The notes below the pieces were generated by a model. It was not told the origin of the DNA, made no database searches, and worked only from the letters and a program-made list of their open reading frames with translations. The position numbers and the translations under genes were made by a program. From Escherichia phage AV126: a stretch of DNA of 64,000 nucleotides. Location of the stretch: the sequence record OR352956.1. One strand, written 5' to 3'. This document shows positions 20,299 through 59,217 of this stretch, piece by piece; the stretch's first letter is position 1, and every line of letters starts with the position of its first letter.

Positions 20299-20527
20299 TT
20301 CTTCCTCCTAATGTTATCTCCGGTTTGTATATACGAAGAATTATAGCATTTTCATTTTCTTTGTCAACCCATTCTTCATAATCGGGCCATACATGAATCT
20401 CTACTCTACTTACAATATTTTCCATCCGCACAGTCCCAATGAAATATTCTTTGAGACTGCGCATAATGAAAGCTTCTCTCTCGCGCCAATAATTTTCTAC
20501 GACTTGAGAGGCAAGCTCGTCGATCAT
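20279..20527 (-). CDS. hypothetical protein
   Basis: 82-aa ORF, ATGA-type overlap with upstream gene. Confidence 0.4.
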   Translation of the reverse strand: MIDELASQVVENYWREREAFIMRSLKEYFIGTVRMENIVSRVEIHVWPDYEEWVDKENENAIILRIYKPEITLGGRSVKLRN

Positions 20528-21318
20528 TTTTTAGCACCTACCTTAACAACCCACTCTCCGAACTCTTCAGATAAGAGTTTGTCATAAAGCTCTGAATCTG
20601 TCAAGTCTAAATCTTTAATGCCAATAAAACCAACATTGTCATAAGCATTTGCCAGTTCTTTCAGGAAGCTGAACTTCTCATTACCAACGCCAACCATGAA
20701 CCAATAGATAGGCTTATTCTTATTCTCTTCAATAAGACGACGAACAGCACTAGGATCACCATTCTCACCATCTGTCTGGAAGAATACAACACCAGGAGTA
20801 ACGTCAGCACCTGGTTCAGATACAGCTACAACTTTTTCACGCTCTACAGATACTGTTTCAGTTTTACCCAGCAGACGATTAAAGAAGCCTTTCTTTGGAG
20901 CCTCCTCTTGTACCACTTGTTTAGTGGTAACATATTTGGTAACAGTGCCAAAATACTCATCGTAGATATCTGCCATTACAGGGGCGTAATTTGTTCCACC
21001 TCCGATACGAACATTACGCATACATTTACCAACATAGTCATCGTAAACGTCTGCTGTTGCTGGAGTAAGCTCTTGAGAACTCGTATTGAAGGCCCACATG
21101 TCAATTTGTTCATTATCGTCGAACAGCATACCAAAAGGAAGCAGTTTGCCTACAAAATCACTCACTACCCCACGAGTATATAGACCATGCATACTACCAG
21201 AAATATCTAGAGCACATGCTACACGAAGAACAATCTTACCTTCATTCAGGTTCTTATTCTTTTTCAGAGAGAAAGCAAGGTTTTCTTGACGTTTTTTCAG
21301 GCTGATTTTCTCGGACAT
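20524..21318 (-). CDS. von Willebrand factor A domain protein (TerY-like)
   Basis: 264 aa; MIDAS DISGSM, GGGTNYAP, TDGENGD; N-terminal ISLKK like TerD. Confidence 0.65.
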   Translation of the reverse strand: MSEKISLKKRQENLAFSLKKNKNLNEGKIVLRVACALDISGSMHGLYTRGVVSDFVGKLLPFGMLFDDNEQIDMWAFNTSSQELTPATADVYDDYVGKCMRNVRIGGGTNYAPVMADIYDEYFGTVTKYVTTKQVVQEEAPKKGFFNRLLGKTETVSVEREKVVAVSEPGADVTPGVVFFQTDGENGDPSAVRRLIEENKNKPIYWFMVGVGNEKFSFLKELANAYDNVGFIGIKDLDLTDSELYDKLLSEEFGEWVVKVGAKK

Positions 21319-21319
21319 A

Positions 21320-21598
21320 TTATTTCTCCTTCTTAAGTGTAATATTGGTAACTTCTAAATCTACTTCCACCATATTTGTATCTGGTGGGATGCAATGAGT
21401 ATAGCCTCGTTGTGCTAGTGATCCATTAATACAGATCGCACTGTTTGTGGAATTTTTAATGAACACCAAGTTACGGTAGGTATCCAACCCTGCGTCTTCA
21501 TAGGCATCATAATACATGAATGTGTCCCCTATGCCAAGGTCTTCGAAAGCAATAGGTAAATCCTGACACTTTTCTTCTTGAATATTGAATCTAAACAC
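21320..21598 (-). CDS. hypothetical protein, paralog family A
   Basis: Probable GTG start after RBS GAGGAGG; LGIGDTFMY...EVTNITLK; track ORF extended to 21664. Confidence 0.4.
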   Translation of the reverse strand: MFRFNIQEEKCQDLPIAFEDLGIGDTFMYYDAYEDAGLDTYRNLVFIKNSTNSAICINGSLAQRGYTHCIPPDTNMVEVDLEVTNITLKKEK

Positions 21599-22154
21599 GC
21601 ATACCTCCTCTACCAATTTTGAAGCCCAAATCGTAAGCTTCCTTAGTGATCTTTTGTAACTCACTTATAGGAAGTGTTACAAGAGGATCATCTTCTTCAA
21701 TTTCCATCTTGTCATCTTCTGTTTCAATGAGAGTATTATGCACTTTGTGATAAGGGTTGTCAACACGTTTAAACTTATTCTTTTCTGTGCTGAAAAAACA
21801 ATCTGGATCTTCTTCACCATCACCCCAACCTTGGTTAGGATCTCCGTCAGATTGTTCTGTAGGGATTTCACCTGTAAAATACTCTTCCAGCACCATAGCG
21901 ATACCGTCCCTTGGATTCGAGGAATGCATTAAATCACAAACCTTACCCCAATCCATAGCCCATTCGAACCGTTCACGAACGCCATTTTCATTCTCCTTTC
22001 CAGAGAAAACACAACCATAACTATCATAGTTGCCATACATCTCTTCAATAACAACACCATCCTTCAAAAGAAAGAGATAGCAAGGTGATCCGTCGAAAGA
22101 AGTAGAAAGGGCAGCTTTGCCCGATTCCTTACACAAAAAGCTAAAACAACCCAT
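21591..22154 (-). CDS. hypothetical protein
   Basis: 187-aa ORF, acidic C-terminal half. Confidence 0.45.
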   Translation of the reverse strand: MGCFSFLCKESGKAALSTSFDGSPCYLFLLKDGVVIEEMYGNYDSYGCVFSGKENENGVRERFEWAMDWGKVCDLMHSSNPRDGIAMVLEEYFTGEIPTEQSDGDPNQGWGDGEEDPDCFFSTEKNKFKRVDNPYHKVHNTLIETEDDKMEIEEDDPLVTLPISELQKITKEAYDLGFKIGRGGMRV

Positions 22155-22351
22155 TACAAACCCTCCTTCAGATTATCAAGAGCTACAGTGGTTTCACAAA
22201 ATTCTCCATATGCTTTATGATGTTCTAGAAAAGCTTCAGGTCCACCCCAATCATTATCGTGTGTATTCCAACCATCAATAAAAGCATCTTCAATGATTGT
22301 GATCAGTTCCTGTCGAGTCAACGTAATGGTATCAGGTTTTGGATTATGCAT
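22154..22351 (-). CDS. hypothetical small protein
   Basis: 65-aa ORF. Confidence 0.4.
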   Translation of the reverse strand: MHNPKPDTITLTRQELITIIEDAFIDGWNTHDNDWGGPEAFLEHHKAYGEFCETTVALDNLKEGL

Positions 22352-22517
22352 CTTCTTTCTCCTCTAAAATATGAAACCCATAGCTACAATAGTCCTGAAA
22401 GGTTTCGTGTGCAAGATCTTCTATATCCTCTTGAGACATATCATCTTCAATTTCGATATCCACAACCTCATTGCATCCACACCAAGCAGTTTCAATATTC
22501 ACTCGTAAAGTTTTCAT
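22344..22517 (-). CDS. hypothetical small protein
   Basis: 57-aa ORF not in track; ATGA overlap with upstream stop. Confidence 0.3.
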   Translation of the reverse strand: MKTLRVNIETAWCGCNEVVDIEIEDDMSQEDIEDLAHETFQDYCSYGFHILEEKEDA

Positions 22518-22720
22518 TCTTCTTCCTCATTAAATTCCACATCAGAAATAACTTTAAATCTACCAAAGTTACGACAACCTTCATAGATATATCCATCACG
22601 ACAAGCTGCAAAAATATCTGGAGTTTGTAGCTGGGTCATTGGGGCAAAGCGTTTCTCTTCGTCATAACGAACACCTATTTCTCCAGCTTGTTCGTCAAGC
22701 ATGTATACACGGATTCTCAT
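22514..22720 (-). CDS. hypothetical small protein
   Basis: 68-aa ORF. Confidence 0.4.
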   Translation of the reverse strand: MRIRVYMLDEQAGEIGVRYDEEKRFAPMTQLQTPDIFAACRDGYIYEGCRNFGRFKVISDVEFNEEEE

Positions 22721-23829
22721 TTACCCAACCCCTTCTTAACAGCGTCAACCATCCCATCTTCGAGAGATTGAACTTCATTGATGTAATCAACACGGGCAGC
22801 ACGGGCTTCCGTATTGATGCGGTTAGTTTCTTCCAACATTTTAACCAAGTTTTCCTGATCGTGACGCAGAGTTTCAATATCCAACACTTGACGGTTAGCC
22901 AGTGCTGCTGCTTCGATCTGATTCTGTGTGGCAAGATCGCTACCCAGTTTAATTGCCAGGTTAAATTCATCAAGAACGTTATTCTGTGTCTCTGCGGCTT
23001 TCATTTGACGTAAGCTTTCAATATACATTGAGAAGTTAGCAGAGTAAGCAGGAATAACATTATTTACTATGTTACGCGCAGATCGCATTAAGCTTGCAGA
23101 AACTTTTTGCATACCTTGCACACGTGGTCCCATTTGGACACACAGTAGGCGCAATGCTTTTAAATCCGCAATACGAATCTCCAGAAGATCCAAGGTATCT
23201 CGGATCGCTTGTCGCTGTTCTACCGCATCTTCTGGAAGAGCAGCCAAAGCTTGTTCTTCTTTTTCATAGGTCGCTGTTAGAAGCTGCATATCTCGGTTCA
23301 AACTTGCAGCATATTGTCCAATAGCTTGATGTAGCTTTTCAAGGTATACCAAAGAATCTTCTTCTTTGCGAATATCCATTTGAAGGTTCTTTACCAACTC
23401 TTCAATACGGTTATTAACATTATCAAACTCCCCAAACAGGTCTTCTTTCATACCCATAACTTTTTTAATGAGTTTAGTAATACCCTTGCTTTGTTTAATA
23501 GAGTTTGGATCAAGTTGTTTTGCCTGTTTAATCAAAGCTGTGAGTCGTTCACTCATCTGATCGCCTTGATTACTACGTTGATGTTTTAATACCTCAGCAT
23601 TCAAGGAACGCAAGGTTGTTCCTGCCTCTGCCCCAATCTCTTCGATCTCTTGTCGGGTCATAGAAGGCAAAACTGGAACTTCTTGCGGTGCCGCTGGTGC
23701 ATAAACAGGACTGGCATCTAACACGCTTGGAGCGAATACAGATTTACTTGCATCTGTTGTTGCAGCGAATACACTCATTTCAGACTTCTTCTGACCACCA
23801 GTAGCTGCTTTTAAAAATGGACTTGTCAT
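22717..23829 (-). CDS. TelA-like (toxic anion resistance family) protein, putative
   Basis: 370 aa, mostly helical/coiled-coil; assignment rests on size and Ter neighbourhood, not a verified motif. Confidence 0.4.
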   Translation of the reverse strand: MTSPFLKAATGGQKKSEMSVFAATTDASKSVFAPSVLDASPVYAPAAPQEVPVLPSMTRQEIEEIGAEAGTTLRSLNAEVLKHQRSNQGDQMSERLTALIKQAKQLDPNSIKQSKGITKLIKKVMGMKEDLFGEFDNVNNRIEELVKNLQMDIRKEEDSLVYLEKLHQAIGQYAASLNRDMQLLTATYEKEEQALAALPEDAVEQRQAIRDTLDLLEIRIADLKALRLLCVQMGPRVQGMQKVSASLMRSARNIVNNVIPAYSANFSMYIESLRQMKAAETQNNVLDEFNLAIKLGSDLATQNQIEAAALANRQVLDIETLRHDQENLVKMLEETNRINTEARAARVDYINEVQSLEDGMVDAVKKGLGK

Positions 23830-24416
23830 TCTTCATTCTCCTCTTCTGCATCTCTTATATATGGTGAAACACCGTACTCTTTAGCTACTTTAACCCAATC
23901 ATCCCATTTATATAACCATAATTTTCCTTCAGTTCCTTCTTTATCTGATTTCAACCACATGTTAGGTTGCTTGCCTGGGTACATGCGATTAGGTTTACGA
24001 TTATAACCTCTAACACATCTTGTCGCAAACCTATCTACCAGAACAAGAACATATTTATATTCGTGGTTCAACGGCTCTTTGGAAGTGGCTTTAGGATTAG
24101 CCCCTAATTCTGCTGCCAGTTTTTGCCAATGAGCACCGTGCCTACTAAACTTACCCATACAACCATCAATAGCATGAGCAATTTCGTGCTTCATTGTATC
24201 CACGATCATATCTCTTGTGGAGTTCTTATGCAAGTGCCAATTTACAACAACAATTTTATCTCGGTAGTTGCACCAACCGAAAGAGTTATTCACTTTGTTT
24301 CTAACACAAGCTTTATATCCTGCTTCACGTAACATGTTGTAGTAAACAGGAAAATCTTCTTTTATTTCCTGCATCACTTCCCACCACAAGAGTTGCAAGT
24401 CTCTCTCGGTATGCAT
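23826..24416 (-). CDS. SprT-like zinc metalloprotease
   Basis: 196 aa; HEIAH (HExxH) preceded by WCNYRDKIVVVNW. Confidence 0.5.
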   Translation of the reverse strand: MHTERDLQLLWWEVMQEIKEDFPVYYNMLREAGYKACVRNKVNNSFGWCNYRDKIVVVNWHLHKNSTRDMIVDTMKHEIAHAIDGCMGKFSRHGAHWQKLAAELGANPKATSKEPLNHEYKYVLVLVDRFATRCVRGYNRKPNRMYPGKQPNMWLKSDKEGTEGKLWLYKWDDWVKVAKEYGVSPYIRDAEEENEE

Positions 24417-24419
24417 AAC

Positions 24420-25013
24420 TTACACCTTAAAAGCGAAATGCGTGGTCGTGGCTTCAAAATCAGGGCCAGATAAACTTGCACTGAAATCTGAAATATTTGT
24501 AATTAAAAAGCTTTTATGCATACCTAACACAGCCACGCTTTCAATATCTTCTACTAACATTTCAATCATGTTAGAAACATGGCTGAACGTATAGTTTTGT
24601 TTTTTGATGGTGTAGAAAGAAAGACTCCCACCTGCTGTATAAGATACCTCTTCAAAATCTTTAATCGTATATTGTGTGCCATCAGTAAAGAAAATGGTAG
24701 CTTTATTAGTAGCACGTTTCTTGTTTTTTGGTCCTTTTTTACGTTTACTGCGAGTAGGCAAACCGTTTGGAAATACCGTAGCTACAAATTCTTCAGGAGA
24801 AACCTCCTTACCGAAATCATAACCGTAAGAAACAGCGTCTATAAACTCGTCGTCTTCATTTTTAAAATAATGAAAATAGGGCCAATTTGAGAGATTATCG
24901 AGCATCTTATGCTCATCCACAGCAGAGAACGTATCCCTCAAAGCACGTGTGATTTGCAAAGCATTAGGCAAACTTTTAACACCTGTAATGGAAGTACGAA
25001 TAGAAATTGTCAT
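24420..25013 (-). CDS. hypothetical protein
   Basis: 197-aa ORF. Confidence 0.45.
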   Translation of the reverse strand: MTISIRTSITGVKSLPNALQITRALRDTFSAVDEHKMLDNLSNWPYFHYFKNEDDEFIDAVSYGYDFGKEVSPEEFVATVFPNGLPTRSKRKKGPKNKKRATNKATIFFTDGTQYTIKDFEEVSYTAGGSLSFYTIKKQNYTFSHVSNMIEMLVEDIESVAVLGMHKSFLITNISDFSASLSGPDFEATTTHFAFKV

Positions 25014-25027
25014 TGTTTTTCTCCTTA

Positions 25028-25465
25028 TTAACGTCGCTTGCTACGAGATGAACTCTTTTTACTTAAAGGGCTATTGTAAGATTTACGAGTTGTATAGCTA
25101 CTATTTGTTTTAAAAGTTTGTCTCGGCTTTTCATAAGTTTTTATCTCTTGTTTAGGCTTACCATAAAAATTAGTTTTCGGCTTAGGTGTATTATAATGCT
25201 TATTAATAATCGTTCTGTTATCGTTATAATCTCCACTGCTACGATTACTACCGCCACTCATCATATGCCCTAACAACATACCTGTAGCAAACTCACCAAC
25301 ACCGCTACTACTAGAACCGCCACCATTGTTGATAATAGTTGTATCTCCGTCAGATCCTTGTTGAGCGTATTGTTGAGGAGGTTGTTGGTATTGTGCAGGA
25401 TTTGTTTCATCCTCGCAAGCTGTTAAAAAGATACAACCAATTAAAATCAGGGCTAGTTTTTTCAT
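25028..25465 (-). CDS. lipoprotein
   Basis: Start re-set to MKKLALILIGCIFLTAC (lipobox LTAC) after RBS GAGGAAAG; Gln/Pro/Gly-rich mature part. Confidence 0.55.
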   Translation of the reverse strand: MKKLALILIGCIFLTACEDETNPAQYQQPPQQYAQQGSDGDTTIINNGGGSSSSGVGEFATGMLLGHMMSGGSNRSSGDYNDNRTIINKHYNTPKPKTNFYGKPKQEIKTYEKPRQTFKTNSSYTTRKSYNSPLSKKSSSRSKRR

Positions 25466-25652
25466 ATTTGCTTTCCTCGTTTTGGCTATTAATACATCTG
25501 TGTTTGAAATCTCCAGAGAAGCAATAAAGTTGCTCTCCATCTCGGTATAAACTCACTTTACTGCCGTTGATTACGCTTGTCAATACAAAAATTACAACAA
25601 ACAACCCTATTGCAAAACAGATATTTTCAAACACAACCAACAAGTATTTCAT
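25407..25652 (-). CDS. small membrane protein
   Basis: 81 aa, hydrophobic N-terminal helix; ATGA overlap with upstream stop. Confidence 0.4.
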   Translation of the reverse strand: MKYLLVVFENICFAIGLFVVIFVLTSVINGSKVSLYRDGEQLYCFSGDFKHRCINSQNEESKYEKTSPDFNWLYLFNSLRG

Positions 25653-25999
25653 TTTAAAAATACCTCATCATCAGTTTCATTATCCCAGAAGAACAAATCC
25701 CAACCATTTGGATCGTTCCATTTGGCTGCTGGAGAAGTCCATATTTGTTCGATATCAATATTCAAAACTTCACCGTTTCGTTTTGAAACAGCTTTAGTTA
25801 ATTCCCAACGAGATACAGGCTCTACTTCTCCTGAACCACTTCCACAACAAGCTACAACATTAGGAGGCAAATTAATTGGATCTTTGGTCACAATCATAAC
25901 GCTTACCCCAGGGTAAACTTTTGAAAGATAGTCTGAAATGTAATCCACATCACCAGATAAATCCCAAACAAGTTCTTGAATTTCATCAAAATTATTCAT
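25649..25999 (-). CDS. hypothetical protein
   Basis: 116-aa ORF, RBS AGGAGAG. Confidence 0.5.
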   Translation of the reverse strand: MNNFDEIQELVWDLSGDVDYISDYLSKVYPGVSVMIVTKDPINLPPNVVACCGSGSGEVEPVSRWELTKAVSKRNGEVLNIDIEQIWTSPAAKWNDPNGWDLFFWDNETDDEVFLK

Positions 26000-26010
26000 A
26001 AGTCTCTCCT

Positions 26011-26035
26011 ATAAAATAGCCTCCCGAAGGAGGCT
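26011..26035 (-). terminator. hairpin after terC
   Basis: AGCCTCC-ttcg-GGAGGCT then ATTTTAT on minus strand. Confidence 0.5.
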
Positions 26036-26041
26036 CATCTA

Positions 26042-27016
26042 TTAAACAGCAGCTTCTTCTTTTTCAGGGAAGATAAAGCTTGCAATAACACCAAGAGCTA
26101 ATGTGCCTAGAACAATCATCAGACTTACGTTAGGGGAAATATCATGCGGGAGGAATGACCATTTGGCATGAAGTGTTTCACCGAACGGGTGATACATAAG
26201 TTTAGCACCAACAAACACCAGAACCACAGCAACAGCTTTCTCTAAGTGAACCAGATATTTCACAGCTACACTTAACACAAAGAAAAGTGCACGTAAACCA
26301 AGAACAGCCATCAGCATTGCAGAATAAACTAGCAGAGGTTCTTGTGTCACCCCGATCACAGCCGGAACTGAATCAAAAGAGAAGACAATATCTGTAAGCT
26401 CAATAACAAACACACAAAGAAGAGCAGGAGTTGCATATTTAATACCATTCTTAATGGTAATGAACTTTTCACCATCCAGTGCATTGTGCACAGGCAGAAC
26501 TTTACCTACTAAACGAACAGCCCAATGCTTAGAGTAATCAATATCCTCTTCTTCGTCACCACCTTTGATGATAGCCACGGCAGACCAGGCTACAATCAAA
26601 CCGAACAACACTTGGACCGACCAATGAAGGTTAAACAAAGCGGTGCCTGCTGCAACAAAAATACCTCGGAAGACAATGGCTCCTGCAATCCCCCAAAGTA
26701 AAATCTTATGTTGGAGATGTGTGCTCTTAATTCCAAAGCTTGCAAAAATTGCCATGAACACCATCAGGTTATCTACAGAAAGACTCTTTTCCAACACATA
26801 ACCACTTAGGAAAAGCGCGGCAAACTCTTTACCATGTTCTACCCAAATGAATGCGTAATATCCTAAAGCTAAAGCAATCCAAAAAACAGACCAAAGCAAA
26901 GCAGATTTAATTCCAATTTCTTTATTCTCTTTATGACCAAAGAAATCGATACCAATAGACAATGCCAAAATACCAACTAAAACAACTACATCAATAATTG
27001 GGAAACCGAGTTGCAT
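26042..27016 (-). CDS. terC: TerC-family integral membrane protein
   Basis: 324 aa, multi-pass; EKSLSVDNLMVF and SFDSVPAVIGVT motifs. Confidence 0.8.
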   Translation of the reverse strand: MQLGFPIIDVVVLVGILALSIGIDFFGHKENKEIGIKSALLWSVFWIALALGYYAFIWVEHGKEFAALFLSGYVLEKSLSVDNLMVFMAIFASFGIKSTHLQHKILLWGIAGAIVFRGIFVAAGTALFNLHWSVQVLFGLIVAWSAVAIIKGGDEEEDIDYSKHWAVRLVGKVLPVHNALDGEKFITIKNGIKYATPALLCVFVIELTDIVFSFDSVPAVIGVTQEPLLVYSAMLMAVLGLRALFFVLSVAVKYLVHLEKAVAVVLVFVGAKLMYHPFGETLHAKWSFLPHDISPNVSLMIVLGTLALGVIASFIFPEKEEAAV

Positions 27017-27033
27017 TCTTTTCTCCTCTCTTT

Positions 27034-27092
27034 GCGGGGAACTATTCCCCGCTTCATGTGATATATCTTACTCTTTTTAAGAACTATGTCAA
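27034..27092 (-). promoter_or_regulatory. promoter plus 5' hairpin cassette driving terC
   Basis: Minus strand TTGACA, 16 nt, TAAGAT, then GCGGGGAA-tag-TTCCCCGC and RBS; same design as island cassettes. Confidence 0.6.
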
Positions 27093-27095
27093 CAC

Positions 27096-27317
27096 TTATT
27101 TTGTTGAATGAGAGGAAAAGATTCCTCGTAATACAGCCAGAATAAACGAAACACAAACCACGGTCCAGAAGGTTACTGGGACAGTGATATCTGCATGACC
27201 CATAACTTCAGCAACATAGTTGTAAGCCAGCAACAGTAACCAAGCTGGAATCAAACTAAGCATAAAAGCAATAACAAAAAAGCTTACCACTGCAACAATA
27301 CCTGCAAAAACACCCAT
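27096..27317 (-). CDS. small membrane protein
   Basis: 73 aa, two hydrophobic helices. Confidence 0.45.
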   Translation of the reverse strand: MGVFAGIVAVVSFFVIAFMLSLIPAWLLLLAYNYVAEVMGHADITVPVTFWTVVCVSFILAVLRGIFSSHSTK

Positions 27318-27329
27318 ACTAATCTCCTC

Positions 27330-27815
27330 TTAAAGTTTATAAATAGTCACATCGTGACCAGCTTTTACTAAAGTTTCTTTGATCATGACTTCAATGATAG
27401 CCCAATTACCTCCAGCATGACCTGCACCTATCATAGGTAGACCAATCTTATGTGCTGGCTGATCTCCTTTATCGTAATTGTGTAAGTCCATTGCCATAGC
27501 TGCAAGAGCATCATACAGCGCATCATAATCTAGTTGACGACCTTTACTATTGTATCCATAACGATACTGTCCATAAAGGTTGTATACCATAGGGTTAGGA
27601 TAATCTTCTGGTTCCCCTAAACTAAAAGAACCAAGCTTTTTCTGGTTTCCTGCTCCTGTAGCTAAATCTGCTTCGTATGCATATGGAAACGCATATTTTA
27701 TTTGTGGGGCAATGCCTGCCCCCATATTACACATACAGTTGCAACAATGAGCAATAACAGTTACTTCACCTGCTTTAGCGGCATCAATAAGATTACCTGT
27801 TTTCATTTTAAGCAT
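27330..27815 (-). CDS. macro-domain protein (ADP-ribose binding/hydrolase)
   Basis: Start re-set to ATG after RBS AAGGAG; VIAHCCNCMCNMGAGIA resembles macro VNAAN...GGGV motif. Confidence 0.7.
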   Translation of the reverse strand: MLKMKTGNLIDAAKAGEVTVIAHCCNCMCNMGAGIAPQIKYAFPYAYEADLATGAGNQKKLGSFSLGEPEDYPNPMVYNLYGQYRYGYNSKGRQLDYDALYDALAAMAMDLHNYDKGDQPAHKIGLPMIGAGHAGGNWAIIEVMIKETLVKAGHDVTIYKL

Positions 27816-27828
27816 TTTTAGCTCCTTA

Positions 27829-28656
27829 TTACAGAATGTGTTGTTTTGTGTAACGATCCAAGAATTCAAAGTTTTCAGCATACTTTGCAATCCGATTGTA
27901 GCCTTCAGCTAAACAGCCGAAGAAAAGTTGTTCCACATAGTAGTGTGGCAATTGGCTAAGAATGATTTTGAAGTCTTCATGATTTTGGCCCATAAGATAC
28001 TTAATAGGACGAACAAGGCACTGTGCATCACGTTCTTCATTAATCATTTTAACAAACGCTTCTGGTGTATTAATGTAGTTAAAATTCAGTTTAGCTTCAG
28101 TATCTGCTTGATTACCTTCGTATTTTGCAAAATACAAGAAGTAAACATCATTTTTAACTTGATTTTCATCAAGAATCTCAATCAGTTTGTCTTCATGCGT
28201 TCCGGTGATATTTACATCATCAATGAACACCAACTTCTTATCACCCCAGAATTCTTTGTTGCAGTAGAATGTATCCCCATCAATAAGTTTCTTACGACTA
28301 GCTTTATCCAAGAAGCCATAATCGTTAATATAACTAACTTTACGATGAATAATATCCAGTTCTGCTGAACGACCTTGATCATATTGTGCTTGCAACATAT
28401 TAAAGTAATTAATAAAATGATCTGTCATCATTGTTGCAGCATTATGCACATGGTTATAAGGAGAAGGAATGATAACAAATTGTTCCCCAATATGTTTCAT
28501 TGCCACTTGAGCAAAAAACTGAAGTGCCAATTCTTTACCCATACGACGCGCAGCTTGGTTACTGCCAAATTTCAATTTTGAATAATCTTTGATATCAAAA
28601 GTAGCAGTTTCCAGGTCATCAAATTTATTTGCAAAAATTTGAGTTTGATTACGCAT
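27829..28656 (-). CDS. phosphoribosyltransferase-domain protein
   Basis: 275 aa; KKLVFIDDVNITGTHE matches type I PRTase PRPP-binding motif. Confidence 0.55.
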   Translation of the reverse strand: MRNQTQIFANKFDDLETATFDIKDYSKLKFGSNQAARRMGKELALQFFAQVAMKHIGEQFVIIPSPYNHVHNAATMMTDHFINYFNMLQAQYDQGRSAELDIIHRKVSYINDYGFLDKASRKKLIDGDTFYCNKEFWGDKKLVFIDDVNITGTHEDKLIEILDENQVKNDVYFLYFAKYEGNQADTEAKLNFNYINTPEAFVKMINEERDAQCLVRPIKYLMGQNHEDFKIILSQLPHYYVEQLFFGCLAEGYNRIAKYAENFEFLDRYTKQHIL

Positions 28657-29305
28657 TTACAATTTCTCCTCTTTTAAGTTTCTCTAGTAAGTCGTTAGGG
28701 TTCTTAATATGACAGAAGTTAATCCCTATGTCAACACATTTTCCATCAAATTCTTCGCTGTCCCCAACATGTAAAATCTCTTCAGCCTTCAAAGGAATGC
28801 TTGAATATGTGGCGGTCCTAACAAAGAATCTAGGATCTGGTTTACACAACAGATGTTCGTCTGAAAAATGCATAAATTCAAAACAATTCCAACTGTCAAA
28901 CATACAAGCACGACGCAAAATATCCCCAGATATAAAATTAGTATTGCTTTTAATACTAAGATCATATTTACCAGACAAGTATAGCAAACAAACTGGCAAA
29001 TCTAAAGCAATATGTGGAGGAAATTTAAGAAACCATTGCTCACACTCAAAACGCATTTGTGCAGATTCTACAGGGGTTAAACCTATCTTTCTTCCCAACA
29101 TATTCCATGCATATGCTACACCTTCTGCACACCCATTTAGTGCAGCATTATCCATAATTTCTTTGGCATCTTTATAGGCTTCTTTTGCGGCACGTTCAGA
29201 CATTCTACCATATGTGGCAATAGTGTGCGTACGTGCATCTGCATAGTTTTGATTGGCAGAAATAAGAGTATTCCATACATCAAAAGAGATATGTTTTATT
29301 GTCAT
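28649..29305 (-). CDS. HAD-superfamily hydrolase (putative)
   Basis: Start re-set to MTIKHISFDVWNTL (HAD motif I-like); C-terminal HVGDSEEFD (motif IV-like). Confidence 0.5.
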   Translation of the reverse strand: MTIKHISFDVWNTLISANQNYADARTHTIATYGRMSERAAKEAYKDAKEIMDNAALNGCAEGVAYAWNMLGRKIGLTPVESAQMRFECEQWFLKFPPHIALDLPVCLLYLSGKYDLSIKSNTNFISGDILRRACMFDSWNCFEFMHFSDEHLLCKPDPRFFVRTATYSSIPLKAEEILHVGDSEEFDGKCVDIGINFCHIKNPNDLLEKLKRGEIVNA

Positions 29306-29306
29306 A

Positions 29307-29912
29307 TTAGGCCCACCATGCATCAAGATTTAAGTTACTATCTACCACAACTTGTTCTATGTGGTAGCCTTTTATCTGTATCCCACTGTTTAAGAGCATA
29401 TCATATGCTTCATTGAAACGCAACTTATCTTCTGCGGAATATAAGCGAGCATTATAAAATCGGTAATCAATTTCTTCAACATTAGAAGAAATACGGAAGA
29501 AGTTTGTTTCTACTTCAGGATCACTTGCTGAAGTCTTAATGTGAACTTCTCCATAATTTTCTTTACTTAGATCCATGAAAAGAACACAGGCAACATGTTT
29601 AAACATTCGTTCCAGTTTGTAACGAACAACATTGAAACCTGCATTCTCAAGTTTCTCTACACATTGCAACATTAACGTAGTGTCGAGATCGCTTTGATAC
29701 TTTGTTAACATACGATCACGTTGAGACTTTGTATCCCGATGTAAATCAATTGTTGTGCATTTGGCACCAATGATCTTAGCTGCTTTCATCAACTCTTCAG
29801 AACTAACGTTAGATAAAGTAAGATGAAAATGGGCTTTCCACACTTTTTTAGCAGGAATGCCAAAAGATTTATCCCCGCTATTTGGCATGTTAACTACTAC
29901 ACTATGTTGCAT
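29307..29912 (-). CDS. hypothetical protein
   Basis: 201-aa ORF; HFHLTL is a possible H-x-T-x motif, unverified. Confidence 0.45.
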   Translation of the reverse strand: MQHSVVVNMPNSGDKSFGIPAKKVWKAHFHLTLSNVSSEELMKAAKIIGAKCTTIDLHRDTKSQRDRMLTKYQSDLDTTLMLQCVEKLENAGFNVVRYKLERMFKHVACVLFMDLSKENYGEVHIKTSASDPEVETNFFRISSNVEEIDYRFYNARLYSAEDKLRFNEAYDMLLNSGIQIKGYHIEQVVVDSNLNLDAWWA

Positions 29913-29927
29913 TACTTATCTCCTCAC

Positions 29928-30119
29928 TTAAAATGGAAGTCTTTGAAGTTCATCTCCTCCGATATCAAGTAATTTAGCAACATCTCGATCAGAAAGCAAC
30001 TCTTTTCTTTGTAAAATATCTACAAGGGTTGCAAGAATATCCTTAACGTCCCGATCACTGTTCTTCAAAAGTTCTCCTGCCGTCCCTACCCTATCTCCTA
30101 CAGCAAAATATGTAACCAT
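29928..30119 (-). CDS. hypothetical small protein downstream of nrdG
   Basis: Start re-set to ATG after RBS AGGAGG; 63 aa. Confidence 0.4.
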   Translation of the reverse strand: MVTYFAVGDRVGTAGELLKNSDRDVKDILATLVDILQRKELLSDRDVAKLLDIGGDELQRLPF

Positions 30120-41137: not shown

Positions 41138-41165
41138 ATCTTAACAAGATTAAAAAGTATGTCAA
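41138..41165 (-). promoter_or_regulatory. sigma70-type promoter for minus-strand block
   Basis: TTGACA, 16 nt, TAAGAT on minus strand. Confidence 0.55.
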
Positions 41166-44894: not shown

Positions 44895-46355
44895 GTGCCA
44901 AAAATAGTCACTTGGGAACAATATAAAACAGATATAAAACAAGCTTATCAAGGTAAGTCTTGGACTGTTGTAGATTATATTGAGCCGTGGAACGGCAATA
45001 AAACTAAACTTAGATGCATCTGTGCTCTGCATGGAGAATGGAAAACAACAAGCATAAATACCGCTAAACTAGGGAGGGGTTGTCCAGAATGCGGTAGGGA
45101 GATTATAAGTAAAGCAGTATCTATAAACAAATCAAAAACCTGGGAGCAATATAAAGAAGAAGTGCAAACCGCTTACAATCAGGCAGGTAAGTTTTGGACT
45201 GTTACAGGATGGCACGGAGAATGGAAAGGATGGAATACTAAACTGGTTTGTTGTTGTGCTTTACATGGGGAGTGGAGGTCTACTTCTATATCTTCTGCGA
45301 AAAACGGGAGTGGATGCAGGAAGTGTATGGGAGAAGCAAACAGAGAAAGAACATCGATTGCATGGGAGAAACATAAAGAAGAAGTAGAAGAAGCTTATAA
45401 AGAAAAACCCTGGATTGTTAGAGGCTATGTGGAACCGTGGAACGGTTCCCGCACTAAGTTGATTTGTGAGTGTAAGGTTCATGGTCAATGGTGCACTACC
45501 ACTGTAAACAGTGCTAAACAAGGGACTGGATGCTACAGTTGTCAAAGAGAAATGACGAAACAAAGGAATACAATGGAGGATAAACAACATGTTGAAGATT
45601 TTATAAAAGCTTGTCCTGATAATGTAGAGCGTAAATATTATCGTAGCGATAGAGTAGATAGATTAGGTCGTCAGGTTTACTGGATTGTAGAATGTCCTAT
45701 ATGTGCAGAGGATGATTATTGTAAAGAAGGCTTATGCGATAATAAATTTGAGATGAAGATGAGTCATTTGAAAAGGGGTGGCCTTCCTTGCCGTTGTTCT
45801 AAATATTATCATTACACTCCTGAACAATGGGCCTACCGTATGACCAAAGCTTGCCAGGAACGAGGGGATCAATTTATAGGATTCATTGATAAGGTAAGCA
45901 ATAACAGCAAGTTTAAATATCTATGTAGGGAGCATGGAGAGCAAACGATCACACCTACCGATTATCTCAATGGGAAAGGTTGTCCAGGCTGTAAGAACAG
46001 AAATATGCAAGAATTTTACATCAATATTATTCTTGATGAGTACGGAGAAGACACGGGAGCTTACAAGTTGGGGATTGCAAAGGACAGTGATATCAGGATC
46101 AAAGGGCAGAATGCAAACAACAATTACTTTATGCGCCGTATAGCATTGTTCGATCTGCCGTCCTACCAAGCTTGCAGGGCGTTAGAGAGTAAGCTAAAGT
46201 CTAAGACTGATCAGATTCTACCGTCTATTGGCTGTGTAGAACGCTTGCACATGAAAGATGGTCATAGTGAAACCTTCCTGCGCGAGGATTTGGCTATCGT
46301 CTTAAGTGCTATCAACCAAGCAGGTGGAATAATGAGAGAGGAGGAAACATGTTAG
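44895..46355 (+). CDS. zinc-ribbon repeat protein
   Basis: 486 aa; three tandem ~70-aa units each with C-x-C...HGxW...SAK-x-G-x-GC-x2-C; probable GTG start. Confidence 0.55.
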   Translation: MPKIVTWEQYKTDIKQAYQGKSWTVVDYIEPWNGNKTKLRCICALHGEWKTTSINTAKLGRGCPECGREIISKAVSINKSKTWEQYKEEVQTAYNQAGKFWTVTGWHGEWKGWNTKLVCCCALHGEWRSTSISSAKNGSGCRKCMGEANRERTSIAWEKHKEEVEEAYKEKPWIVRGYVEPWNGSRTKLICECKVHGQWCTTTVNSAKQGTGCYSCQREMTKQRNTMEDKQHVEDFIKACPDNVERKYYRSDRVDRLGRQVYWIVECPICAEDDYCKEGLCDNKFEMKMSHLKRGGLPCRCSKYYHYTPEQWAYRMTKACQERGDQFIGFIDKVSNNSKFKYLCREHGEQTITPTDYLNGKGCPGCKNRNMQEFYINIILDEYGEDTGAYKLGIAKDSDIRIKGQNANNNYFMRRIALFDLPSYQACRALESKLKSKTDQILPSIGCVERLHMKDGHSETFLREDLAIVLSAINQAGGIMREEETC

Positions 46356-46907: not shown

Positions 46908-47446
46908 GAATAACTGATGAATATGTATTCTTCTTTTCACATAAAGATGTGTTTAGTAATTGGTATATTGCACCCTTTACAGAAACTGAACTAGGTTACA
47001 ATGAGACTTTCTGTTGTGTTGAGCAATATATGATGTGGCGTAAGGCTTTGCTGTTCAAGGATCATGCGATTGCAGCAGCTATCCTTGATCACTCAACTAT
47101 ACGTGACAACGAGAGGAAACAAGCATACTACAAACGTATGGGTCGAGCGGTATCTGGTTTTAATAATGATATGTGGGAAGAGAACCGTGAGCGTATTGTT
47201 ATGCGAGGCTTATGCTTGAAATATGTACAGAATCCAGATTTGTATGCAGACTTACACCTTTACCAATACAAAACGTTTGTTGAAGCAAGCCCCTACGATA
47301 AGGTTTACGGAATTGGAATGGGGATGTATGAACCAGGGGTGCTAAACCCTGCTACCTGGAAAGGGCAGAATCTTTTAGGCAAATATCATAATAAACTGAT
47401 CGAAATACTTTTCCCAGACAAAATACCGCAAAGACGATATTTGTGA
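46904..47446 (+). CDS. NADAR-domain protein (YbiA-like)
   Basis: 180 aa; FSNW, VEQYMMWRKALLF, KRMGRAVSGF, VEASPYDKVYGIGMG collinear with E. coli YbiA. Confidence 0.75.
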   Translation: MRITDEYVFFFSHKDVFSNWYIAPFTETELGYNETFCCVEQYMMWRKALLFKDHAIAAAILDHSTIRDNERKQAYYKRMGRAVSGFNNDMWEENRERIVMRGLCLKYVQNPDLYADLHLYQYKTFVEASPYDKVYGIGMGMYEPGVLNPATWKGQNLLGKYHNKLIEILFPDKIPQRRYL

Positions 47447-47502
47447 TATTTTAACTTTTTTCATTTTTAGAACAAAGGTGTCACTTTGTAGCACAGAAAT
47501 AA

Positions 47503-47536
47503 GGCTCCTACAGCACCGTAGAGAGCCTGTTATTTT
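47503..47536 (+). terminator. rho-independent terminator ending plus-strand block
   Basis: GGCTCCTAC-agcacc-GTAGAGAGCC then TGTTATTTTG. Confidence 0.6.
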
Positions 47537-47685
47537 GTCCTATACAAACCCTTGTCTTTTTCAGTTTGCATCACTAGGATTCGATCTGAGTGGGTTCCTG
47601 AAGGTCTGCCAATAAGATTAAAGGTTATCTCAAATTCCCACTACCTATTATCTCAAAAATCCCTCAAATTATTTAAACTTTTTAA

Positions 47686-47870
47686 GAATTTACAAAAGTG
47701 AAAGTTGAAAACCAAAATTTAAAGTTTAGGAAAAATTATCTTAGAATGTTAGATACAAACAAAACTCAAAAGTCAAGGAAAATTTTAAAAATTTTGCGCG
47801 CCCACAGTATTTAAAGTTTTTTTGCTTTTACAAAAATGAAAGTACAAAAGCAAAATTTAAAGTTTACAAA
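47686..47870. repeat. two imperfect ~45-bp direct repeats
   Basis: TTTACAAAAGTGAAAGTTGAAAACCAAAATTTAAAGTTTA (47686) vs TTTACAAAAATGAAAGTACAAAAGCAAAATTTAAAGTTTA (47818). Confidence 0.6.
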
Positions 47871-47914
47871 AATTTATGCAGGTGGGAATGAGAAGAGTTC
47901 TCATGTGGAAATGC

Positions 47915-47993
47915 AAATGATAATGATTCGCATTTAAGTTTATAAACGAGATTGATTCTTATTCAATAAGGTAAATGATAATCATTCTCATTT
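47915..47993. promoter_or_regulatory. two Fur-box-like motifs
   Basis: AAATGATAATGATTCGCATTT (47915-47935) and AAATGATAATCATTCTCATTT (47973-47993) vs consensus GATAATGATAATCATTATC. Confidence 0.4.
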
Positions 47994-48251
47994 AGAGAAT
48001 GACGCGCAGGGGCGGTGTTTGTCTCGCGCTCCCGTGTCCCCTCGCCATGTAATAAGAATAACAGATCCAACCAGGAAAGCAAGCGATTATTTTATCTTTA
48101 CATTTCTTTACAAATATATAGCGCCCAGCCTACCGGCGATCAACCTTCCAACCAGCGCCCCTGGTATGTTAGCCCCGCCTTTACGCCGTGGGGTGGCGCT
48201 TCCTCTTCTGTATGTAAAACAGTATAAGCCCGATCCCTGGGCTTGTCAAGA

Positions 48252-48518
48252 TTATTTTTTGTTTTCTTGCCAGGATAGGACACCTAACCAAAAATGCATA
48301 TCGCCCCGCGCCGCTGGCGGGATCTTGCTTTCCCCGCCGCCACTGCAAGCCCATAAATAACCATCAGCAAACGGATCAAAATGTTCTATCTCTTCCACTT
48401 TATGATCGCCCAGGTTGAGAACGGTTTCAACCTTTAAGCCCGTTGCGCTTGCTACCTGGTGCACCGTGCCGCCTTGCCAGCCCAATGAGTGCATAAGGTG
48501 TAATGTAGTATTTGTCAT
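48252..48518 (-). CDS. hypothetical protein (uncertain)
   Basis: 88-aa ORF in GC-rich non-coding-looking stretch; weak RBS. Confidence 0.25.
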   Translation of the reverse strand: MTNTTLHLMHSLGWQGGTVHQVASATGLKVETVLNLGDHKVEEIEHFDPFADGYLWACSGGGESKIPPAARGDMHFWLGVLSWQENKK

Positions 48519-48626
48519 GGTATCGCCCTTTCTTTGATGTGCGCCCTGGTTGGCGCGGTAGAAAGATAATAGCCCTTTTCTTTATATATAGCAAGCAAAA
48601 AGAAAATAAAAAAGATTGAAAAATGG

Positions 48627-48683
48627 TTGACGTTAACCAGGCGGCGGCGTAGTATTCATCTTATAGGGCGGCAATGGTGCCGC
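48627..48683 (+). promoter_or_regulatory. promoter-hairpin cassette 1
   Basis: TTGACG, 17 nt, TAGTAT, then GGCGGCA-atgg-TGCCGC. Confidence 0.6.
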
Positions 48684-51250: not shown

Positions 51251-51309
51251 TTGACAGCACGAATAAAAAGAGTAAACTGTATTACATAGAGAGCGGGAAC
51301 ACTTCCCGC
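51251..51309 (+). promoter_or_regulatory. promoter-hairpin cassette 7
   Basis: TTGACA, 16 nt, TAAACT, then GCGGGAA-cac-TTCCCGC. Confidence 0.65.
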
Positions 51310-51582: not shown

Positions 51583-51642
51583 TTGACAACGTTTAAAATT
51601 AGTGTAAGATGTATCACATAGGGCGGGAAGTGGTTTCCCGCC
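51583..51642 (+). promoter_or_regulatory. promoter-hairpin cassette 8
   Basis: TTGACA, 16 nt, TAAGAT, then GGCGGGAA-gtggt-TTCCCGCC. Confidence 0.65.
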
Positions 51643-52461: not shown

Positions 52462-52500
52462 TTGACTTTTCGTTATAGCGCCTTATAATGGGCGCTATAG
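52462..52500 (+). promoter_or_regulatory. promoter with palindrome over the -10 box
   Basis: TTGACT, 16 nt, TATAAT lying in the loop of ATAGCGCC-N8-GGCGCTAT. Confidence 0.55.
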
Positions 52501-52532
52501 AGAAGAGAAACCACTACTAACAAGGAAACATC

Positions 52533-53419: not shown

Positions 53420-53447
53420 AAGGGCGCACCAAGCGCCCTTTCTTTTT
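53420..53447 (+). terminator. rho-independent terminator
   Basis: AAGGGCGC-acca-AGCGCCCTT then TCTTTTT. Confidence 0.7.
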
Positions 53448-53660: not shown

Positions 53661-53720
53661 TTGACACCATAACCGGACCTGTTAAACTGTATTACATCAG
53701 GCGGGGAATAGTTCCCCACC
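53661..53720 (+). promoter_or_regulatory. promoter-hairpin cassette 13
   Basis: TTGACA, 16 nt, TAAACT, then GGCGGGGAA-tag-TTCCCCACC. Confidence 0.6.
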
Positions 53721-55535: not shown

Positions 55536-55597
55536 TTGACAGCACGCAAACAACGTAGTAAAGTTTACCACATAGGGCGGCGGAATGGTCCACCGCT
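55536..55597 (+). promoter_or_regulatory. promoter-hairpin cassette 18
   Basis: TTGACA, 17 nt, TAAAGT, then GGCGGCGGA-atgg-TCCACCGC. Confidence 0.6.
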
Positions 55598-55619
55598 CAC
55601 AACAGAAGAGAAACAAATC

Positions 55620-55790
55620 ATGATCCCGACTATGTTTTATGTATCGCGCAAAGGTCACAATATTTTTTGGTCTGAAGATTTAAATGAAGCCATGACGTTT
55701 GCCCGTGATCGTGTTGCTATCGGTGGCGTTAACATCACCGTAACCGATGAAAATGGCATTGAATACTATAACGGCGACGATGAAGAGTAA
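55620..55790 (+). CDS. hypothetical small protein
   Basis: Start re-set to MIPTMFYVSRKG; 56 aa. Confidence 0.5.
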   Translation: MIPTMFYVSRKGHNIFWSEDLNEAMTFARDRVAIGGVNITVTDENGIEYYNGDDEE

Positions 55791-55856
55791 TTAATAAGGC
55801 GGGGAATACTTCCCGCCACGCAGTGAATTTTCCGTTTGGGAAGTAAAAAATAAATC

Positions 55857-58410: not shown

Positions 58411-58468
58411 GATTATACAAGGGGCGCACTAAGCGCCCTTTAACGTAAAGAAATGTAAATAATGCGCT

Positions 58469-58505
58469 ATCCCCTATTGACAGGGGATCGGCGTTATATT
58501 ATATT
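58469..58505 (+). promoter_or_regulatory. promoter with palindrome over the -35 box
   Basis: ATCCCCT-attgac-AGGGGAT enclosing TTGACA; 17 nt; TATATT; no downstream GC hairpin. Confidence 0.5.
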
Positions 58506-58984: not shown

Positions 58985-59012
58985 AGGGGCGCACCAAGCG
59001 CCCTTTCTTTTT
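58985..59012 (+). terminator. rho-independent terminator closing the island
   Basis: AAGGGGCGC-acca-AGCGCCCTT then TCTTTTTG. Confidence 0.75.
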
Positions 59013-59217
59013 GCCTGAACAATGTTGATAGCTTTCGCCTATGAAAAACCGACACAGAACAAAACTGAATAAATCGCGGTATCGAGCTAATCAACCATCA
59101 AACGAATAACCATACATCCCAGGGCAACAGGCTGTTAGAGAGCTATTTAGAGCGGTTAAAATCGATCTACAACCAACAACAAACCATCAAAAACACCCTT
59201 TTACCTCCTTTCTAGTG

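Follow-up and report, generated by a model that had tools for sequence, protein, structure and literature searches.

In Escherichia phage AV126 (sequence record OR352956.1), the gene terC is preceded on the minus strand by a compact element that joins a predicted promoter to a GC-rich hairpin. We analysed a stretch of 64,000 nucleotides (nt) of this DNA, the whole of which is called the window here. The window derives from a Phapecoctavirus (Stephanstirmvirinae, phAPEC8-like coliphage), and its segment 25000-29000, which includes terC, is 98.5% identical to Escherichia phage vB_EcoM_Schickermooser and matches about 60 further phAPEC8-like phages at 90-97%. An earlier note, made from the letters of the window, had described the element as minus-strand TTGACA, 16 nt, TAAGAT, then the hairpin GCGGGGAA-tag-TTCCCCGC, followed by a ribosome-binding site and terC. 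Direct reading and a pattern search agree that this description is exact to the base (Table 1). The hairpin starts 12 nt past the -10 hexamer; 3 nt separate its end from the Shine-Dalgarno sequence and 17 nt from the terC AUG. Within a long array of genes on the same strand, terC is flanked by a promoter (27092-27065) and a terminator (26035-26018) of its own.

At sigma-70 promoters, transcription generally starts 7-8 nt after the -10 hexamer, favouring a purine with a pyrimidine before it. The predicted start site for terC is A27057, which lies 8 nt past the -10 and follows a C. From this position the terC leader would be about 40 nt long, with the hairpin at nt 6-24 and an unpaired 5′ stretch of 3-5 nt ahead of it; the Shine-Dalgarno sequence is unpaired in the centroid fold. 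A transcript starting at A27057 would open with an AUG (27055-27057, minus strand) that is out of frame with terC. This triplet is present in phage phiWec181 and is probably meaningless, because it is not kept in Justusliebigvirus.

Elements of the same design crowd a second region of the window, 21 kb from terC as the earlier note had correctly stated (the first copy is at 48627). Repeat finding and a scan for promoters followed by hairpins place about 21 such cassettes on the plus strand between 48627 and 58032, a region that we call the island. An island cassette opens with A-rich sequence, often ATAAAAAC, in which the preceding gene has its stop codon. This sequence is followed by TTGACA, a spacer of 16-17 nt and a -10 hexamer (TAAGAT, TAAACT or TAATAT), then by an initial transcribed region with the conserved motif GTATCAC(A/G)TAGGGCGG, a GC hairpin, a purine-rich Shine-Dalgarno sequence and ATG. 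The hairpin begins 8-15 nt past the -10 in the cassettes and is always downstream of it. Island copies hardly vary at TAGGGCGG, where the leader meets the stem, or at the first two stem pairs. Every cassette folds, and the hairpins themselves belong to several classes whose stems differ, namely GGCGGGAAG-tgg-TTTCCCGCC, GGGCGGCA-atgg-TGCCGCTC, GGCGGcGGA-atgg-TCCaCCGCC, GGGGCG-acaag-CGCCCC and two-part stems, and their loops mostly read U-R-G (UAG, UGG, AUGG or AUAG). Each island cassette stands before a small open reading frame (ORF), and all ten of the ORFs scanned against PHROGs belong to families of unknown function.

To compare the terC element with these copies, we built a hidden Markov model from 20 island copies only, with the terC copy excluded, and used it for nhmmer scans. 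The profile finds the terC element at 27092-27031 on the minus strand with 27.3 bits (E=1.4e-7), a score within the range of the island copies, which bears out the proposal that terC carries the same cassette as the island genes. Features that terC has in common with individual island copies include the 16-nt spacer, the spacer end AAAAAGAGTAA, TAAGAT, ATCACAT and the hairpin GCGGGGAAtagTTCCCC. The terC spacer end AAAAAGAG-TAA is identical in the island copies at 51251 and 51902, and the terC hairpin is nearly identical to the island hairpins at 53701 and 52797. The motif TAGGGCGG is absent from the terC copy, which has TGAAGCGG instead, and from the terC orthologs.

The significance of the match resides in the composite and not in the promoter by itself. 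Pairs of sigma-70-like hexamers alone are at chance level, as the surrounding 10 kb has 25 of them where 29 are expected, and a fortuitous meeting of a generic promoter with an unrelated hairpin might be entertained on that count. However, the composite written as an exact pattern matches the window once (27034-27092, minus strand) and occurs in not one of 100 dinucleotide-preserving shuffles, and together with the E value of the island-only profile and the retention of the arrangement in orthologs with compensatory changes this refutes a chance origin, to which we give a negligible probability. Strong Watson-Crick GC hairpins in the window number 21, and nine of them (eight in the island, and that of terC) lie 8-14 nt downstream of a near-consensus promoter.

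The earlier note had gone further and called the cassette a genome-wide regulatory module. This part did not hold up. Searching the window with the cassette model gave only one significant match outside the island, that at terC. In the complete genome of DIJ07P1 (Phapecoctavirus, 142,881 bp) the profile matches 15 times in the island (78.4-84.7 kb), once at terC (56677, minus strand) and nowhere else; in that of VEcB (Justusliebigvirus, 148,885 bp) its matches are likewise confined to the island (81.7-89.8 kb) and terC (57843, minus strand). The first 50 kb of Schickermooser, the part that was scanned, gave no profile match. As terC is the sole match outside the island in the window, DIJ07P1 and VEcB, a genome-wide module is not supported. 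In the window, near-consensus intergenic promoters at 41165, 39801, 38761, 28734 and 12844 lie on the same strand as terC and are followed by a Shine-Dalgarno sequence and ATG but lack a hairpin.

A generic scan found the same layout in unrelated sequence outside the window, at 124775 in DIJ07P1 and at 125866, 128064 and 131601 in VEcB, all on the minus strand (loci L006 and L013). These loci consist of a promoter, 0-12 nt, an 8-bp GC hairpin, a Shine-Dalgarno sequence and ATG. The orthologous pair formed by DIJ07P1 124775 and VEcB 125866 has different stems, both fully paired. The promoter-hairpin design thus recurs elsewhere, but the sequence family consists of the island and terC.

We examined the element at terC orthologs. 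Every Stephanstirmvirinae terC sampled, with seven stem variants among them, has a sigma-70 promoter, a hairpin 9-12 nt past the -10 and a Shine-Dalgarno sequence. The stem-loop of the window recurs in Schickermooser and tuntematon. DIJ07P1 has GCGGGGGAA-tag-TTCCCCCGC, with a paired insertion; phiWec181 and L009 have GCGGGGAG-tgg-TTCCCCGC, in which an A-U pair has become G.U; and the Justusliebigvirus phages (VEcB, cardinal, PHB05 and L010) have GCGGAGGA-ttg-TCCTCCGC, with two double changes. The remaining variants are AAGAGGGGG-atagg-CTCCCTCTT in Klebsiella phage phi1_175008 and, of the same Klebsiella type, AAGAGGGAG-atagg-CTCCCTCTT in L008 and AAGGGAGAG-atagg-CTCTCCCTT in L007. In these three orthologs the loop AUAGG is invariant and the stems covary with matching 3′ arms. 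A leader specific to terC was considered and ruled out, as the terC genes of two Grimontviridae phages, GAP52 and BUCT695, are packed in operons and have no such leader. The cassette is therefore a feature of the phage subfamily and not of terC.

Covariation was counted over 19 distinct hairpins with 3-nt loops, in equal-length segments centred on the predicted hairpins. We chose this layout because a MAFFT alignment of all terC leaders set two stem geometries out of register. Paired cells make up 90.6% of the total compared with 74.7% in shuffles, none of 500 shuffles being as high. Changes on both sides occur in seven of the nine pairs, and sliding the partner columns lowers pairing to at most 62%.

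We put at about 0.5 the probability of the reading that we favour, in which the cassette is an early promoter for host RNA polymerase whose mRNA opens with a protective hairpin, with promoter activity, timing, start site and hairpin function all predicted. The anatomy of the terC leader is observed, as are its membership of a composite regulatory cassette family otherwise restricted to the hyperplastic island of small ORFs, its conservation with compensatory stem changes across the subfamily, and the lack of a terminator T tail. Unmodified host RNA polymerase would start at the cassette soon after infection, and promoter geometry places the beginning of the transcript about 3-5 nt ahead of the hairpin. 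A stable stem-loop at the 5′ end of every cassette mRNA would shield it against 5′-end-dependent decay by RppH and RNase E, and would hold the ribosome-binding site constant and unpaired in cassette-started and read-through RNA alike. The terminator directly after terC would make this membrane protein gene a self-contained early unit inside the Ter-system cluster. That an early promoter at terC is read by host RNA polymerase can reasonably be inferred, although read-through from upstream promoters on the same strand can also reach terC. It is plausible, as the earlier note proposed, that terC belongs to the expression class of the island genes.

Two features of the terC hairpin argue for a role in the leader. 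No T tract follows it on either strand, and a terminator scan flags true terminators nearby (that at 26018-26035, and others) and not the hairpin; genuine terminators of the window, such as those at 26018-26035 and 53420-53440, have such a tract. In addition, the predicted start precedes the hairpin, which is therefore no canonical terminator but probably a leader element of its own transcript. Because a strong terminator downstream of the -10 would abort the cassette's own transcripts, a leader function is also more economical. Stem-loops at the 5′ terminus are established stabilisers of mRNA in E. coli, as in ompA and papA, and protection against RppH and RNase E is the best-documented function of such leaders there (reviewed in PMC3997798).

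Several observations weigh against this interpretation. Conservation beyond pairing, in TAGGGCGG and the U-R-G loops, suggests that something reads the sequence, and a passive stabiliser needs no such reader. The predicted unpaired leader of 3-5 nt is at the upper limit of the protective range for ompA-type hairpins. Stability is greater in the sense than in the antisense orientation for 22 of 30 distinct hairpins (p=0.035), a weak and mixed result from non-independent copies, and a class of hairpins with a C.A mismatch, which would be G.U on the antisense strand, points the other way; action at the RNA level is thus not proven over action at the DNA level. The covariation segments were anchored on predicted hairpins, which inflates pairing, a bias from which the orthologous terC set is free. 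Finally, in the literature on Phapecoctavirus and phi92 we found no data on start sites, timing or half-lives for this phage group.

The first alternative, possible although unlikely, builds on the promoter-early stem-loop (PeSL) cassettes of the T4-type phages RB49/phi1, T4/PST and KVP40/nt-1 (Arbiol et al. 2010, PMC2839356; Comeau et al. 2014, PMC4122927). Each combines an early sigma-70 promoter close to consensus with a stem-loop rich in G/C; the upstream stop codon lies in AT-rich sequence, and a Shine-Dalgarno sequence and ATG complete the cassette. They cluster in hyperplastic regions beside ORFans, at the boundaries of indels and replacements (PMC2839356, PMC4122927). As an attenuator or terminator of this type, the hairpin would damp transcription from upstream, so that cassette genes, including terC, would run mainly from their own promoters. 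A T4-type PeSL stem-loop lowered lacZ expression about as much as rrnB T1 (PMC2839356), and a promoter-dense island would profit from insulation. The GenBank record MZ726793 (phage ASO2A, PMC10612097) labels the hairpins 'rho-independent terminator predicted by WebGeSTer', as part of an automatic and uncommented annotation of a promoter and 'WebGeSTer terminator' before terC and the island genes. However, the T/U tract is missing on both strands, and efficient termination at a hairpin 8-15 nt past the -10, inside its own transcript, would kill that promoter's output.

It is less likely still that the hairpin is an operator for an RNA- or DNA-binding protein of phage or host origin, which would co-regulate the cassette transcripts as a whole, for example by early shut-off or translational repression, in a regulon made up of the island and terC. 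Conservation that exceeds pairing speaks for such a site: TAGGGCGG and the first two stem pairs hardly vary in the island, most loops conform to UAG, UGG, AUGG or AUAG, and AUAGG stays fixed over the covarying stems of the three Klebsiella-type orthologs. The terC hairpin, at 17 nt from the AUG and 3 nt from the Shine-Dalgarno sequence, is also near enough for steric control of the ribosome. Nevertheless, the analysis turned up no candidate for the binding protein, the terC copy has TGAAGCGG in place of TAGGGCGG, stem sequences vary widely among classes, and shared ancestry or gene conversion could account for the conservation of sequence. We regard as equally doubtful a broader version, in which the hairpin would be the recognition site of a dedicated RNA-binding protein or nuclease, phage-encoded or hijacked, that gives cassette transcripts a common post-transcriptional fate (such as timed shut-off or protection), with TerC wired into this early regulon and the cassettes serving also as recombination linkers, so that the PeSL principle would reach beyond T4-type phages.

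A mainly DNA-level role is improbable in our view. Here the cassette would be a recombination linker that shuffles modules through homology or cruciform formation, as proposed for PeSLs, and the terC copy would be a relic of insertion. In T4-type phages, recombination from one PeSL cassette to another gives rise to mini-circles. The mosaic structure of the island speaks for it. Among close relatives, coverage of the island is 62-100%, in several pieces; block boundaries relative to DIJ07P1 (~50880, 52530 and 54637) and to VEcB (48924, 50360, 50876, 51575, 52797, 55200 and 55870) fall at or next to cassettes; and the order of modules differs from that in both phages. The window terC cassette, which is 88% identical to its phiWec181 ortholog, is as similar to the best island cassettes (73-77%) as to orthologs from other genera (65-73%). 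These identities would fit common constraint or occasional gene conversion, the sequences being too short to decide.

At terC itself the comparison with tuntematon runs counter to the linker. The two phages are 94% identical over 100% of the island, yet their TerC proteins are only 73.5% identical. In a sliding comparison identity is 98-100% across the cassette and the first 60 nt of terC, falls in a divergent block at about 26950-26100 within the coding sequence, and is complete again at the 3′ end and terminator. Because the breakpoints lie inside the coding sequence and leave the cassette itself 100% identical, these are ordinary mosaic patches and not a cassette-bounded exchange, and we rejected terC as a cassette-bounded mobile module. 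Furthermore, terC and its cassette occur in all sampled Stephanstirmvirinae and are hence old and stable; a linker would in any case be compatible with a regulatory role. Over 23000-30100 as a whole, tuntematon (L014) differs from the window in patches of 55-75% identity at 29300-28750, 27700-27450 and 26950-26100, set in DNA that is 96-100% identical.

The surroundings of terC are listed in Table 1. A phage-borne Ter-system array occupies 20524-29326 on the minus strand and adjoins genes for anaerobic ribonucleotide reductase. Within this array the cassette is confined to terC, which also has its own terminator behind it. TerC is found in all sampled Stephanstirmvirinae at the same position, with 71-100% amino-acid identity, and remoter homologs occur in other phage families. 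Ter systems in phages have been described by Iyer et al. 2021 (PMC7824862), who proposed a role against superinfecting phages (superinfection exclusion). Such a role would fit early expression of terC.

Table 1. Coordinates of the terC cassette, the terC region and the cassette island in the window
Feature	Position	Strand	Remarks
-35 hexamer TTGACA	27087-27092	-	6/6 consensus; A-rich stretch ahead holds stop codon of 73-aa ORF
-10 hexamer TAAGAT	27065-27070	-	4/6 consensus; 16-nt spacer ending AAAAAGAG-TAA
Initial transcribed region ATATCACATGAA	27053-27064	-	12 nt; contains ATCACAT, common to island copies
GC-rich hairpin GCGGGGAA-tag-TTCCCCGC	27034-27052	-	Perfect 8 bp, 3-nt loop, ~-14.6 kcal/mol
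Shine-Dalgarno sequence GAGAGGAG	27023-27030	-	AAA (3 nt) after hairpin; 6 nt ahead of ATG 27016
terC ORF	26042-27016	-	324 aa, ATG at 27016; TerC-family membrane protein, PF03741, E=3e-40
Intrinsic terminator AGCCTCC-ttcg-GGAGGCT then ATTTTAT	26018-26035	-	6 nt past terC stop; terminator annotated in relatives
73-aa ORF upstream of terC	stop TAA 27098-27096	-	Stop sits 3 nt before cassette -35
vWA-TerF-like	20524-21318	-	Ter-system array member
TelA	22717-23829	-	Ter-system array member
SprT-like	23826-24416	-	Ter-system array member
Macro-like	27330-27890	-	Ter-system array member
PRTase_3	27829-28656	-	Ter-system array member
HAD-type hydrolase	28649-29326	-	Ter-system array member
Island -35 starts, first part	48627, 48909, 49269, 50155, 50346, 50797, 51251, 51583, 51902, 52205, 52758	+	
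Island -35 starts, second part	53194, 53661, ~53943, 54320, 54693, 55173, 55536, 55857, 56657, 57964	+	

The island and its approaches hold further elements. In two inverted repeats the arms surround a promoter hexamer instead of sitting downstream: TATAGCGCC-TTATAATG-GGCGCTATA (52462-52510) encloses a -10, and ATCCCC-TATTGACA-GGGGAT (58470-58500) encloses a -35 (58477). A solo hairpin of the cassette type, GGCGGGGAATACTTCCCGCC (55799-55817), perhaps a degraded half-cassette, has no promoter and directly follows the stop codon of the ORF at 55536-55790. Intrinsic terminators of one near-identical family, GGGCGCACCAAGCGCCC with a T run behind it, lie at 53420-53440, 58422-58452 and 58987-59017 and are distinct from the cassette hairpins. 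Just before the island, 1.2 kb (47446-48627) has no convincing gene on the plus strand. It holds an AT-rich direct repeat of 75 nt (47665-47739 and 47803-47877, 81% identical), a weak Fur-box-like site (47971-47989, 16/19, matched equally well in 5 of 100 shuffles) and a GC-rich segment (48.0-48.5 kb, 51% GC compared with about 40%) in which a promoter, TTGACA-17-TATACT, points leftward at 48249 and an ORF of 88 aa lies on the minus strand (48252-48518). Further upstream, a 486-aa ORF (44895-46355, plus strand) has internal repeats of about 75 aa, the DNA repeats starting at 44913, 45141 and 45363 (228 and 222 nt apart).

Phage T7 RNA polymerase recognises the promoter TAATACGACTCACTATAGGGAGA. 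The -10 and leader of island cassettes, TAAGATGTATCACATAGGGCGG (for example at 51605-51627), resemble it with a 1-nt gap. A promoter for a phage single-subunit RNA polymerase was rejected, as no such polymerase domain was found in the nine DIJ07P1 ORFs of at least 600 aa, and the likeness is therefore treated as coincidence.

Among known systems, the PeSL cassettes offer the closest set of parallels that we considered. Island and terC cassettes have the same parts, a promoter with an AT-rich, stop-bearing stretch and a stable G/C-rich stem-loop. As with PeSLs, the island is hyperplastic, holds small genes of unknown function and has indel or replacement boundaries at cassettes; occasional copies stand beside accessory genes in conserved regions; and the island stem-loops around the -10 (52462) or the -35 (58477) match PeSL subclasses. 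The likeness is one of architecture and not of compared sequence, and the phages are Stephanstirmvirinae rather than T4-type. The hairpin here is nearly fixed at 8-15 nt past the -10, in the predicted transcript, whereas PeSL loops are mostly upstream of the promoter or overlap it and have been read as terminators, and the terC copy lacks a cassette-bounded exchange. Our literature searches turned up no description of such cassettes for Stephanstirmvirinae or rV5-like phages. The terC element is a further, lineage-specific example of the PeSL kind of promoter-stem-loop cassette, with the hairpin in the predicted leader.

Other comparisons are looser. As the ompA and papA stabilisers are presented in the work of Emory, Bouvet and Belasco (1992) cited in PMC3997798, the terC leader resembles them in having a hairpin a few nt from the predicted 5′ end and an accessible ribosome-binding site; it differs in that the predicted 3-5-nt leader may exceed the length for full protection and in that the phage element is repeated in some 20 copies with extra conservation of sequence. 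The short stem and small purine-containing loop near the start site, and the conservation of the loop alongside stem covariation in some terC orthologs, recall the lambda nut boxB/N system and the DNA hairpin promoters of the N4 virion RNA polymerase. However, there is no boxA-like partner and no gene for an N-like protein or N4-type polymerase, and this likeness is a lead only. A structured 5′ leader before a TerC-family gene is also found in the yybP-ykoY or pH-responsive alx leader. The phage leader differs in being about 40 nt long with a single hairpin, and a known RNA family or riboswitch leader was rejected, with no Rfam match at gathering score in the whole window. Finally, phage morons are genes that sit in a longer operon with a promoter and a terminator to themselves, an arrangement that terC shares in its long same-strand array. 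Unlike a moron, terC is not sporadic; it has the same position in all sampled members of the subfamily, among related Ter-system genes.

In summary, phAPEC8/phi92-like phages, which are widely isolated for therapy, have their variable early region organised by composite promoter-stem-loop cassettes, a type of element described until now for T4-type phages. The finding is otherwise modest, as automatic annotation in one GenBank record had already marked the parts, and the function proposed for the hairpin is putative. The sole cassette gene of recognisable function encodes the membrane protein TerC, part of a phage-borne Ter system. terC thereby offers a concrete handle on the cassette, being conserved and stable in position and having natural compensatory variants of the hairpin. 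Its place behind such a cassette suggests a need for TerC as early as the first minutes of infection, which fits the superinfection-exclusion role proposed for phage Ter systems (PMC7824862).

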